64,000 nt of DNA. It comes from Nitrospirota bacterium (lineage in GTDB: Bacteria > Nitrospirota > Thermodesulfovibrionia > Thermodesulfovibrionales > Dissulfurispiraceae). The notes below the pieces were generated by a model. That model worked only from the letters and a program-made list of their open reading frames with translations. It was not told where the DNA came from and did no database searches. The DNA is taken from positions 160,001 through 224,000 of the forward strand of contig CAWBMP010000004.1 in assembly GCA_963790025.1 (NCBI GenBank), given 5' to 3'. The position numbers and the translations under genes were made by a program. Below are positions 46,499-48,998 of the stretch, piece by piece; within the stretch, counting starts at the first letter, position 1, and every line of letters begins with the position of its first letter.

Positions 46499-46753
46499 AA
46501 AAAGGCCATAAAGGCAGTAGAGGAAGTGACAGGCGTACTTTGGGATGAGATAAGCTCCCGAAGCAGGAGCAAGGAAGTAATATTTGCGCGAGGATTATTA
46601 GTTGGGGTATGGAGAGAGGCGGGGCATCGGATAGTGAACTTACAGCCCCAACTGAGGAGGGACTTATCAGTGCTTTCAAGATTGTCAAAAATCGCAGAGA
46701 GTGAAAGAGGACGAAAAGCCATGAAACAAATATTTCACATGCTAAATGCATGA
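46499..46753 (+). pseudogene. 5'-truncated helical fragment, probably the DnaA-C/TrpR-like HTH tail of a REP-associated (Y1) transposase
   Basis: KKAIKAVEEVTGVLWDEISSRSRSKEVIFARGLLV...RDLSVLSR; frame open right up to the MITE end; followed by GCCTGA|CCCC. Confidence 0.55.
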
Positions 46754-46797
46754 ACGCAAGCCTGAACATCCCGCTGGAATTTTCAATATATTTTTTC

Positions 46798-47997
46798 TTA
46801 TTTAGATAAGATGTACCCTCTGTTCTCCTTCAGCATCTTGAAAATAACACGGCAAAGATGACGACCAAGCGCACGTAGTGCCTGGTTATGTTTCTTGCCT
46901 TCAGCTCTTTTTTTCTCATAATATTGTTGAGACTGCGGAACTTGTTTTCGGTGCCGATCTACGGCAACCATCATTGCGGCCTTAGCCCGAGTATTAACCT
47001 GCGTTGGTGGTTTTGATCCTTTTTGCTTGCCTGAACTATTGTCAAGATTCGCCATCCCAATATACAGAGCCAGACTTGCTTCGCTGCCAAAGCGCTCGAT
47101 AGTTCCAATCTCTCCGGCGAGTTCAGATGTACAAATGGAACCGAATCCTGGAATGGTTGCGAGCGTTTGCGCAATATCCGAGCCGTGTGCAACACCCTCC
47201 ATCTTTGCTTCAAGTGATTTTATCTTGGCATGGAGTTCCATCACGCGGATTGCATCTTCCTGGATCATTTCACCGACCCACTCGACGTCGTGACTAAACT
47301 GTGCTGTTTTCTGCCATTCAACAATAACAGAGGCATATTTCTTACCAATGCCCGGGATCTTGCGGATAGTTGTTTCCCGCATGCGTGCAAGCGTGCGAAG
47401 GTCATCCGTGCTGGTCAGAAATCCAAGAAACCACATATTGTCGGCCTCACCGGTAATCTCCAGAAGTCCCGGACATACAGCGTGAAGATCGGCCTGTAGG
47501 TTGTTTACTACCCGTACTCGCTCATCGACCAAACGACGCCGGCGCCGTGATAGCCGCTTTAGAATGTCGTTGTCCCGCGGCGTTTTGCGTACCTCCTGCA
47601 GCACATCCTTGGCTATCGGCAGATGATCTCGAAGCTGAAAAAGCTCCAGTCCTTTCCTTGCGTCGATTGCATCGGTCTTCGCGGCACCGGGGAATATCTC
47701 CTTGAATCGAGCAAGCTTGAGATTGTTGATATTGAAGAGGCGATAATTGCGGGCTCGAACGAGCGTGTCCAGCGGACGTGCGTAGCCGTTGAAGCCCTCC
47801 ATTGCTACGGCAACGGGACAACTAAACCTTTGCTCCTGCTTCTCGATGCGACAGAAGAATTGCCGGAACCCTTCAGGTTCATGCACGATTGAGAATTCAT
47901 CGAGGACTTCACCGCTGGATAGGCCGATTGCAACGTTGTGACTGCGGCAGCCAATATCGACGCTTACACGCAGTTCGAGGGGATCATCTTTTTTCAT
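46798..47997 (-). CDS. IS110 family DEDD transposase / bridge recombinase
   Basis: VSVDIG, AMEG, KTDAIDA (DEDD); TIPGFG, EIGTIERF, NSSGK (catalytic Ser region), ALGRHL; AAGGAG RBS. Confidence 0.95.
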   Translation of the reverse strand: MKKDDPLELRVSVDIGCRSHNVAIGLSSGEVLDEFSIVHEPEGFRQFFCRIEKQEQRFSCPVAVAMEGFNGYARPLDTLVRARNYRLFNINNLKLARFKEIFPGAAKTDAIDARKGLELFQLRDHLPIAKDVLQEVRKTPRDNDILKRLSRRRRRLVDERVRVVNNLQADLHAVCPGLLEITGEADNMWFLGFLTSTDDLRTLARMRETTIRKIPGIGKKYASVIVEWQKTAQFSHDVEWVGEMIQEDAIRVMELHAKIKSLEAKMEGVAHGSDIAQTLATIPGFGSICTSELAGEIGTIERFGSEASLALYIGMANLDNSSGKQKGSKPPTQVNTRAKAAMMVAVDRHRKQVPQSQQYYEKKRAEGKKHNQALRALGRHLCRVIFKMLKENRGYILSK

Positions 47998-48021
47998 GTA
48001 GTCTCCTTTGCAGACAAGATT

Positions 48022-48213
48022 ATCATCCTCAGGTCTCGTCTACTTACAGAGCCACATTTGGCACCATCCCGGTCGACCCTTTTGAGGATGATGCAGATGA
48101 CGGAGGCGGCATTTCAGACTCAAGTGAGCCTGAATGAACAGGCCACTGACCCCACAAGCCACACCCCCGTTAAGCATATCTTACATGAATAAAGCTGCCA
48201 TAGTCATCTGCAT
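48022..48213 (-). ncRNA. Predicted IS110 bridge RNA (target-binding and donor-binding loops)
   Basis: Two internal-loop hairpins whose unpaired segments match the insertion site (UGGGGUCAG; AGUCUGA) and the end junction (CGGGAUG; GUAGA). Confidence 0.8.
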
Positions 48214-48315
48214 AAATCCTATGGTAGACCCCATTGTTTCCTTATTCTGAACTATTCGGAATTATAGCAGAATGCCATTTGAACAACTACAACAAGTAAT
48301 CTGAAATTATAGTCA

Positions 48316-48597
48316 CTACTTCGTTGCACCATGCAATTCTTCATCTACCTTCTCAGTCAGGAACATTTTCAGGAGCGATTGGTAAGGAACATCTCTCTTG
48401 TTCGCGAGCACCTTAAGATGCTCAATAAGCGATTCAGGCAGACGAATCGAGATTGTCTTAGTAGATGGCTTTAAGTTCGGAAAAGCGACCCGCTTTGCCT
48501 TTGTATAGTCAATGTACTCAGTAGAATCATGAGTCGCCCAAAAATTGACTTCTTCTGCTTCGCTTTTAAACTTCGGTATCTTCTTGAATTTGCTCAT
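48316..48597 (-). CDS. brnA: BrnA/CopG family antitoxin
   Basis: IPKFKSEAEE..FWATHD, TKTISIRLP, VPYQSLLK; overlaps the toxin gene. Confidence 0.88.
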   Translation of the reverse strand: MSKFKKIPKFKSEAEEVNFWATHDSTEYIDYTKAKRVAFPNLKPSTKTISIRLPESLIEHLKVLANKRDVPYQSLLKMFLTEKVDEELHGATK

Positions 48598-48889
48598 ATA
48601 CTCTTCTCTCCCTGCGGTTCATATCACGCGCCGAAATTATTCTTATCTTGGCTCCCCTCACTGTAAAAACAATGAAAAGTAATCTTCCGGTATCCGTTCT
48701 CCCTAAAACAAAGTATCGGTCTTCACCAATTGAATGTGACGCATCTTTCTTTACGATAATCGGATCGTTAAAGAATATCTCTTCGCATTCAACATGAGAG
48801 ACCCGATGTTTCTCCCAATTCTTCTTGATATTGCCCTCGTCCCATTCAAACCCTTCGAGTGAACCCAATATGTCGGACCAATCTTTCAT
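48566..48889 (-). CDS. brnT: BrnT family toxin
   Basis: GFEWDEGN..KNWEKH, EDRY..LG, IRIISARDM; ATG 48889. Confidence 0.92.
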   Translation of the reverse strand: MKDWSDILGSLEGFEWDEGNIKKNWEKHRVSHVECEEIFFNDPIIVKKDASHSIGEDRYFVLGRTDTGRLLFIVFTVRGAKIRIISARDMNRRERRVYEQIQEDTEV

Positions 48890-48998
48890 ATAGTATATTA
48901 TCAATATATACAAATAAGTTTTCCTTGTCAATTCTGTTACTCCTTATTTGCGACACCTGAAGATTTGAATCATAAAATATAGTCATGCAAACCCCGGC

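Follow-up and report, generated by a model that had tools for sequence, protein, structure and literature searches.

A predicted bridge RNA and its recombinase in an IS110-group element with a TC core from a Nitrospirota bacterium

Bridge RNAs are predicted for 85.7% of the IS110-group members in ISfinder (PMC11208160). In IS621, the core dinucleotide is CT, and T9 is described as almost invariant in IS621 and its close relatives; its left donor guide comprises 8 nt that extend as far as the first core base, its right donor guide is discontiguous, and handshake guides are described (PMC11208158). The IS621 model includes a promoter at the junction of the joined ends and read-through transcription before excision (PMC11208160, PMC11208158). 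The RNA of the IS1111 group has been given the name seekRNA (PMC13604230). Here, we analyzed a stretch of 64,000 nucleotides from a Nitrospirota bacterium (assembly GCA_963790025.1, contig CAWBMP010000004.1, positions 160,001 to 224,000 of the forward strand), referred to as the window throughout. An initial annotation had placed a bridge-RNA-like non-coding RNA, with guides for both target and donor DNA, at 48022-48213 of the window, as part of an IS110 element. We consider it very probable that positions 46764-48226 represent one IS110-group insertion sequence and that its 229-nt left end encodes a bridge RNA of ~190 nt. By every criterion that can be computed from the nucleotide and protein sequences, the element is assigned to the IS110-group bridge RNA elements. 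In the following, we document its anatomy, its covarying structure, the covariation of guides and flanks, its ends and core, and the family and catalytic residues of its protein.

Ends, core and recombinase of the element

Relatives were taken as the best 80 of 244 stretches matched in genome contigs by a protein-alignment search. A blastn match to the left end was present in 77 of the 81 sources (80 loci and the window) and missing in L047, L067, L079, and L080. These 77 sources contained 64 distinct left ends, of which 56 were aligned after removal of two truncated rows (L021, L027) and six that were identical over the core region. Guides and flanks were parsed in 75 of the 81 sources, and L080 was added by hand; a left flank was available for 72 loci and a right flank for 67. 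The element and its ends comprise the following features:

46764..48226, minus strand: whole IS110-group element, 1463 bp with one copy of the TC core, ends set by the TC repeat
48226-47998, minus strand: non-coding left end, 229 nt
46797-46764, minus strand: right end, 34 nt with the core counted
48229..48233, minus strand: left target TGGGG, with the same bases as the left target guide; the core TC comes next (48228-48227)
48221..48226, minus strand: first bases of the left end, TACCAT, representing the right donor and also the -10 box of the joined-end promoter
46759..46773, minus strand: left donor CGGGATGT (46773-46766), core TC (46765-46764) and right target AGGCT (46763-46759)
46798..47997, minus strand: recombinase gene, 399 amino acids, with the ribosome-binding site AAGGAG at 48008-48003

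The flanks read ...TGGGG-TC|TACCAT at 48233-48221 and CGGGATGT-TC|AGGCT at 46773-46759. The dinucleotide TC is thus found on both sides, at 48228-48227 before TACCAT and at 46765-46764 after CGGGATGT. Four metagenome-assembled genomes (MAGs) carry several copies of related elements, with 12 in a Methylococcales MAG, four in a Geminicoccaceae MAG, and three each in a Binatia MAG and a Thermodesulfobacteriota MAG. In these genomes, the copies are identical as far as TC|TACCAT on the left side and GGGATGT-TC on the right side, and they diverge exactly beyond these points. Therefore, the element extends from 46764 to 48226 and has a length of 1463 bp.

The core was TC in all 65 reconstructed sites, which represent all loci with both flanks. 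This agrees with the TC core proposed in the initial annotation and differs from the CT reported for IS621 (PMC11208158). The consensus of the 65 sites is A-rich-T-GGGG-TC-AGG(C/T)(C/T)T, with G at position -1 in every site and G at position -3 in 57. The left end starts with TACCAT in 56 of 68 loci and with TATCAT in seven. A search of the window for further target sites (TGGGGTCAGRYT, at most one mismatch) gave no match, compared with 0.86 expected.

We also considered a crossover register shifted relative to TC, in which target and donor would have the cores GT and TT, respectively, and T would stay at position 9 as in IS621. This register was set aside by reasoning only, the junction sequences alone being insufficient for a decision. 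The reasons are that TC is the only dinucleotide common to donor and target, and that each 3' guide pairs with its own TC while the next base fits the other partner, which corresponds to the handshake pattern of IS621.

Further observations concern the surroundings of the ends. Of the 65 sites, 50 have T at position +6 of the target (window 46754-46758), and in many sites the sequence goes on as TTG or CTTG, with no guide signal past +5; the excess of T may come from a protein contact, wobble pairing, or a common kind of target sequence. At six of 72 loci (L014, L020, L028, L036, L045, and L077), the left target and core are duplicated or triplicated in tandem directly before the element, in units of ~14-17 nt. 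An unoccupied site is present at L031:2398-2445, where an 18-nt left half is repeated twice and followed by AGGTCTTTGG. The tandem left targets may be the footprint of cycles of insertion and excision or of half-site recombination. In some relatives (L062:1145-1262, and likewise L031, L051-L059, and L064-L078), the stretch from the TACCAT end to the closing helix holds ~100 additional bases, amounting to 117 nt in L062 versus 15 nt in the window. This insert contains a near-perfect palindrome whose arms, TTATCCACA, resemble a DnaA box.

The open reading frame adjoining the left end matches the Pfam families DEDD_Tnp_IS110 (PF01548, E 7e-21) and Transposase_20 (PF02371, E 1e-16). It also matches the NCBIfam model NF033542, 'IS110 family RNA-guided transposase', with 164.6 bits against a cut-off of 140, which bears out its annotation as an IS110-family recombinase. 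Its length of 399 amino acids is that of most of the 120 homologues listed. A profile was built from the window protein and 18 homologues; in these 19 aligned recombinases, residues D14, E67, D109, D112, and S322 are invariant. Searched against the PDB, the profile matched IS621 (8wt6, E 1.6e-5), ISCro4 (9t56, E 3.4e-5), and a third IS110-family protein (9mty). In the profile alignment, S322-G323 falls on the Ser-Gly of IS621, D109/D112 on the IS621 motif KTDxxDAR, and E67 on the corresponding Glu of ISCro4. Judged from its sequence, the recombinase is of the DEDD/Ser type, with a DEDD (RuvC-like) domain at the N-terminus and a Tnp domain bearing the catalytic Ser at the C-terminus, and looks intact.

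Fold and guides of the left-end RNA

The predicted RNA consists of a closing helix, a 5' stem-loop, a target-binding loop, and a donor-binding loop, in the following arrangement:

48205..48211, minus strand: 5' strand of the closing helix, GCAGAUG, pairing with CAUCUGC at 48093-48099
48171..48204, minus strand: 5' stem-loop region, a predicted hairpin that holds the conserved -10-like TAnnnT (TAAGAT, 48180-48185)
48158..48170, minus strand: 5' strand of the target-loop stem, ACGGGGGUGUGGC, with the 3' strand GCCGCCUCCGU at 48100-48110
48148..48154, minus strand: left target guide UGGGGUC, comprising five left-target bases plus the core, 7/7 identical to the site
48123..48147, minus strand: inner hairpin of the target loop
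48114..48120, minus strand: right target guide AGUCUGA, pairing with TC-AGGCT (46765-46759) at 7/7 positions with one G:U
48112..48113, minus strand: putative target-loop handshake guide AA, the first A of which can pair with donor position 7 (T46766) after strand exchange; role by analogy with IS621
48083..48092, minus strand: 5' strand of the donor-loop outer stem, AUCAUCCUCA, with the 3' strand UGAGGAUGAU at 48022-48031
48075..48078, minus strand: second donor-loop helix, GGUC, pairing with GACC at 48032-48035
48063..48071, minus strand: left donor guide CGGGAUGGU, matching CGGGATGT-T (46773-46765) at 8/9 positions and stopping at the first core base
48051..48062, minus strand: inner hairpin of the donor loop
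48039..48048, minus strand: discontiguous right donor guide, in which GUAGA (48043-48039) pairs with TC-TAC, UG (48048-48047) has the CA that follows in the left end as a possible partner, and UAA (48046-48044) is looped out
48037..48038, minus strand: putative donor-loop handshake guide CG, in which C48038 is a possible partner of target position 7 (G48229) once strands are exchanged; role by analogy with IS621

All coordinates and strings of the initial annotation were recovered on the minus strand, including UGGGGUCAG at 48154-48146, AGUCUGA at 48120-48114, CGGGAUGGU at 48071-48063, and GUAGA at 48043-48039. It had described two internal-loop hairpins, the first for the target and the second for the donor, in the geometry of IS621, and this order is retained here. 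A fold of the 235-nt end reached -88.2 kcal/mol (z = -3.64), and none of 200 shuffled sequences folded as well. The proposed architecture was then scored, as 41 pairs in six helices, on the alignment of 56 sequences. In 93.7% of the cells the bases were paired, compared with 34.8-47.1% when the 3' partners were slid by one to three columns. Changes on both sides were found in 23 of the 41 pairs, with 132 such cells versus 35.5 after shuffling, and none of 500 column shuffles reached any of the five measures. The structure is thus more than a product of chance.

All six helices contributed to this result. The target-loop stem was paired in 99.2% of the cells, with compensatory changes in 6/11 pairs, and the same helix was obtained with RNAalifold; its terminal pair A48170-U48100 covaries as part of the stem (AU in 47 sequences, GC in eight, GU in one). 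For the inner hairpin of the target loop, the values were 86.1% and 7/9 pairs. In the donor loop, the outer stem was paired in 95.3% of the cells (compensatory changes in 3/7 pairs) and the GGUC/GACC helix in 96.4% (2/4 pairs), the latter with G-C replaced by C-G in ten sequences and U-A by C-G in two. The inner donor hairpin GCC/GGC reached 99.4% (1/3 pairs) and is made longer by self-complementary inserts in relatives. The closing helix was paired in 88.5% of the cells, with compensatory changes in 4/7 pairs. It had been annotated as an 11-bp stem (48213-48203/48101-48091). Seven base pairs, GCAGAUG/CAUCUGC (48211-48205/48099-48093), are free of conflict, whereas 48101-48100 are common to the target-loop stem and 48092-48091 to the donor-loop stem. 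The 5' stem-loop is a fold prediction for the window, the alignment being poor in this region.

The right target guide was compared with the right flanks in 61 distinct guide/site pairs. At positions +1 to +5, we counted 225 Watson-Crick matches in 305 comparisons versus 156 in shuffled pairs, and none of 10000 shuffles was as high. By position, from +1 to +5, matches were found in 57, 52, 41, 35, and 40 of the 61 pairs, compared with 55, 36, 24, 19, and 22 expected; from +6 on, there was no excess in these pairs. With one site per right-guide class (35 classes), 132 of 175 positions matched versus 91, and in each of 200 draws none of 500 shuffles was as high. The signal is limited to +1 to +5, and therefore the right guide consists of the seven bases AGUCUGA named in the initial annotation. 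The target preferred by this guide had been predicted to lie near TGGGG-TC-AGACT. Indeed, L001 has the same right guide as the window and sits in ...GGGG-TC-AGACT.

On the left side, 291 of 360 cells at positions -1 to -5 matched, compared with 269 after shuffling (0/10000 as high). Individual lineages illustrate this relation. In L080, the guide CUCUG-UC faces the site CTCTG-TC, and the right guide of the same locus predicts TCAAGTT, which is the sequence of the site. The left guides of L041 (GGUG) and L042 (AGCGG) likewise equal their sites, GGTG and AGCGG. The 9-nt left guide of the initial annotation holds in its first seven bases, UGGGGUC, which match the site 7/7. Its last two bases, AG, do not follow the site and were rejected as part of the guide: the position after the core is C, G, or T in the guides of 24 of 67 loci, and the site still has A in 21 of these 24. 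As a separate observation, the left target guide of L004 (1288-1475) has CC at the core positions and TC in the flanks, the sole such case among 75 parsed loci.

The donor guides match the joined junction of right end and left end at 8/9 positions on the left, as annotated, and at 5/5 plus two discontiguous positions on the right. The exact combination of left donor guide and end recurs in 56 of 68 loci, which makes the mismatch at position 7 a conserved one. In the right donor guide, the annotated pairing of GUAGA with TC-TAC stands, but the guide is discontiguous, with UG upstream. The (C)UG upstream of GUAGA is conserved, and the linker between them has 0-4 bases and varies in length and sequence. 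A change of G to A in this guide (AUAGA for GUAGA) occurs in exactly the seven loci with a TATCAT end, with no exception in 75. A second compensatory change is found in L042, which has AG for UG in the guide and TACCTT for TACCAT in the end. Covariation on the donor side is limited to the G/A with C/T exchange and L042. Covariation of guides with insertion sites or ends, which the initial annotation had suggested as a check, is accordingly present for the right target, left target, and right donor guides. With respect to the handshake positions, C stands opposite the target G in 72/72 loci and A opposite the donor T in 65/68.

Expression, opposing evidence and alternative readings

The following features bear on expression of the RNA and on the genomic surroundings:

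46781..46786, minus strand: TTGAAA, -35 box of the junction promoter, located 17 nt from the -10 box TACCAT (48226-48221) once the ends are joined
48566-48931, minus strand: BrnT-type toxin (Pfam BrnT_toxin, 1.9e-26)
48316-48597, minus strand: CopG/BrnA-type antitoxin (1.8e-34)

Over 68 loci, the junction -35 hexamer is TTGAAA in 37, TTGCAA in 18, and TTGTAA in four. From these hexamers, we predict a sigma-70-like promoter that forms only across the joined ends. In a consensus scan, no promoter-like site was seen on the minus strand of the left end as integrated, and the stretch from the upstream gene to the element gave no terminator-like site. The brnT-brnA operon (48316-48931) is co-directional with the element and ends 88 bp upstream of it; the element accounts for a 1.46-kb insertion just downstream of this operon, for which the analysis gives exact ends and the sequence of the empty site. 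Read-through from brnTA could feed the bridge RNA of the integrated copy.

Promoter-like hexamers are conserved within the left end (window 48180-48209, minus strand; alignment columns 5-40), where the -35-like (A/G)TGAC(A/G) overlaps a strand of the closing helix. Of the 56 sequences, 52 have a spacer of 17-18 nt and 39 have a -10-like TAnnnT, and the -10-like element ends 9-11 nt before the target-loop stem in 55; both hexamers match at 4/6 positions or more in 31. The window hexamers, ATGACT and TAAGAT, lie below the threshold of the consensus scan. These motifs could represent an internal promoter or a plain conserved part of the 5' stem-loop.

By analogy with IS621, the element would work as follows. 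RNA and recombinase would be made mainly from the promoter that is present only with joined ends, its -35 box lying in the right end and its -10 box in the left end, and the integrated copy would depend on brnTA read-through or on a weak internal promoter. Within the donor loop, CGGGAUGGU together with UG...GUAGA would specify the joined junction carried by the excised circle (CGGGATGT-TC-TACCA). Both loops would be held by a tetramer of the DEDD/Ser recombinase; the top strands would be cut and exchanged at the TC core, and one handshake base beside each 3' guide would then pair with position 7 of the other DNA. Resolution of the junction would leave the circle inserted between TGGGG-TC and AGRCT. 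Transcription, RNA ends, protein binding, chemistry, and current activity are predicted here from sequence, and the same applies to the terms 'intact' and 'programmable' used in the initial annotation.

Several observations weigh against the assignment of this locus to the bridge RNA elements. A search of Rfam 15 with positions 46500-48500 gave no match at E up to 10, which says little, the presence of a bridge RNA family in Rfam 15 not being established. A single-sequence phmmer search of the recombinase against the PDB had no match at E up to 0.001, and the protein-level link to IS621 requires the profile and rests mostly on the C-terminal domain. Within the clade, the donor guides and the left target guide hardly vary, so that their covariation comes from few lineages; moreover, the shuffle tests leave kinship among the sequences in place. 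Some copies occupy poorly fitting sites: most of the 12 Methylococcales copies are found in GGTG-TC-AGTCA versus the guide-specified GGGG-TC-AGTGC. The unconstrained fold of the 192-nt RNA partly zips the sides of the loops together, with mean pairing probabilities of 0.79 for the left and 0.65 for the right target guide. However, the zipping shows no compensatory change (RNAalifold columns 70-72 with 107-109), and with the guides held open the minimum-energy fold is the exact bridge architecture (-67.5 versus -78.2 kcal/mol). Two further opposing points, the single copy in the window and the RNAalifold pairing in the donor loop, are taken up below with the alternatives they bear on.

The misfit sites deserve a description of their own. 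The copies in question (L062-L075, one Methylococcales MAG) lie mostly in a repeated GGTG-TC-AGTCATTGCAT, with one left and several right guide mismatches. They represent either natural tolerance of mismatches or a recent change of the guide.

With regard to present mobility, the element might be a relic that has kept the anatomy of a bridge RNA element but no longer transposes. Using blastn and tblastn, we detected no second copy in the window, whole or partial, so that the element is single in 64 kb. No identical copy was present among the best 80 of 244 loci either, the closest having 91% protein identity and 96% identity over the left end, and the right guide fits its own site only via a G:U pair. 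On the other hand, the reading frame is of full length with all five catalytic residues, and the consensus of the clade is matched by both ends, by the two promoter hexamers, and by all guides and helices. One G:U is, moreover, within the range of mismatches seen at other natural sites. We therefore regard an immobile relic as unlikely, though it is the alternative that survives best.

A second alternative concerns the donor loop. RNAalifold, applied to the 56 sequences, pairs AUCAUCC with the left donor guide and not with the 3' strand of the outer stem. As a matter of sequence, AUCAUCC in the 5' strand (48086-48092) is complementary to both GGAUGAU in the 3' strand (48022-48028) and GGAUGGU in the left donor guide (48063-48070) in nearly all 56 relatives; this dual complementarity could reflect a switch or a trace of the origin of the loop. 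A second functional fold, in which AUCAUCC (48092-48086) masks the guide in a self-inhibited or switch state, would account for the RNAalifold helix, which can form in nearly all sequences, guide and 3' strand being near-copies. Yet none of its nine pairs changes on both sides, and for this reason it was rejected as the main fold. The helices with which it clashes do covary, with G-C at the first outer pair in four sequences and C-G for G-C in ten in GGUC/GACC. L031, read by eye and unscored, retains the pairing with the 3' strand (GUCCUCC/GGAGGAU) and mismatches the guide. Such a second fold appears rather improbable, clearly more so than immobility.

Finally, that the left end is only a structured 5' leader or promoter controlling the recombinase, with the flank matches being end sequences recognised by the protein, is hardly credible, because such a leader, although compatible with the -35/-10-like hexamers conserved at fixed spacing and with donor-side guides as invariant as protein-binding sites would be, predicts neither that the 3' side of loop 1, which is variable, follows the right flank base for base at exactly five positions, nor that the left guide variants of L080, L041, and L042 track their own left flanks, nor that the helices are maintained by compensatory changes.

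Comparison with known bridge RNA systems

A protein search of a plasmid collection returned 950 records, all below 60% identity and the best at 27%, and hence no named close relative. A literature search for 'IS110' with 'TC core' retrieved no paper, a result that does not establish the core as undescribed. The available part of the supplementary tree table of Durrant et al. lists a same-clade cluster representative assigned to 'Multiple Phyla', with an empty ISfinder column. None of five guide and junction strings of the element occurs in the readable portion of the supplements of that study, from which absence is not established. We tentatively raise the possibility, which we hold to be less probable than not by some distance, that the clade forms a bridge recombinase lineage of its own, uncatalogued and distributed across many phyla of environmental bacteria. 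It would be characterised by a fixed TC core, in which C takes the place of the near-invariant T of IS621 relatives, a five-base right target guide, a single handshake pair per loop, and possibly a second, internal promoter, for which the candidate motifs are the -35-like (A/G)TGAC(A/G), the 17-18-nt spacer, and the -10-like TAnnnT 9-11 nt before the target-loop stem. If so, the internal promoter would allow integrated copies to produce a bridge RNA lacking the 5' stem-loop, and this clade would offer an orthogonal core specificity and an answer to how the RNA arises before the first excision.

Bridge recombinases are under development as programmable tools for DNA insertion, inversion, and excision, and the characterised IS621 and ISCro4 use a CT core. 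A natural orthologue with a TC core, and with relatives whose target guides are naturally changed, would widen the range of addressable sites if active. For basic biology, the element mostly confirms the published bridge RNA model in a distant clade. It is not surprising to a specialist, because bridge RNAs have been predicted for most IS110-group elements since 2024. Its value is that of a candidate orthologue, by virtue of the TC core, the naturally retargeted relatives, and the possible internal promoter.

With the IS1111 group, whose seekRNA or bridge RNA lies in the right end, the element shares the recombinase family and the logic of one RNA with two specificities (PMC11208160). IS1111 elements, however, have a long right end that holds the RNA, together with subterminal inverted repeats of 7-17 bp, whereas here the right end has 34 nt and the RNA is in the left end. 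On these two grounds, the element is outside the IS1111 group, subterminal repeats not having been searched for. ISCro4, or IS622, from Citrobacter rodentium (bioRxiv 10.1101/2025.05.14.653916) represents the same kind of system, and its protein was reached by the profile (9t56). ISCro4 is closely related to IS621, has a CT core, and was tested in human cells; the element described here is distant from it and known from sequence alone.

The likeness to IS621 is extensive. In both, the RNA comes from a long left end and runs from a 5' stem-loop through the target loop to the donor loop (PMC11208160, PMC11208158). The guides on the 5' side carry the top-strand sequence and those on the 3' side its complement, with the core included; the left donor guide goes no further than the first core base, and some bases are looped out of the right donor guide, which is discontiguous. 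The handshake bases follow the core-binding GA/AG on its 3' side, a promoter is rebuilt across the joined ends, the recombinase has the DEDD and Ser residues, and the second loop is more conserved than the first. The two systems differ in the core, which is TC (T8, C9) here and CT in IS621 and its close relatives. They also differ in guide length: the left target guide has a signal over 5-6 bases plus the core versus seven plus the core in IS621, and the right target guide extends five bases past the core versus two (extendable). There is one possible handshake pair per loop versus two, the RNA has ~190 nt versus 177 nt, and the recombinase is too distant for a single-sequence match to 8wt6. 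Thus, with its TC core, distant protein, and other guide lengths, the element is outside the IS621 subgroup, while its predicted RNA follows the same plan.

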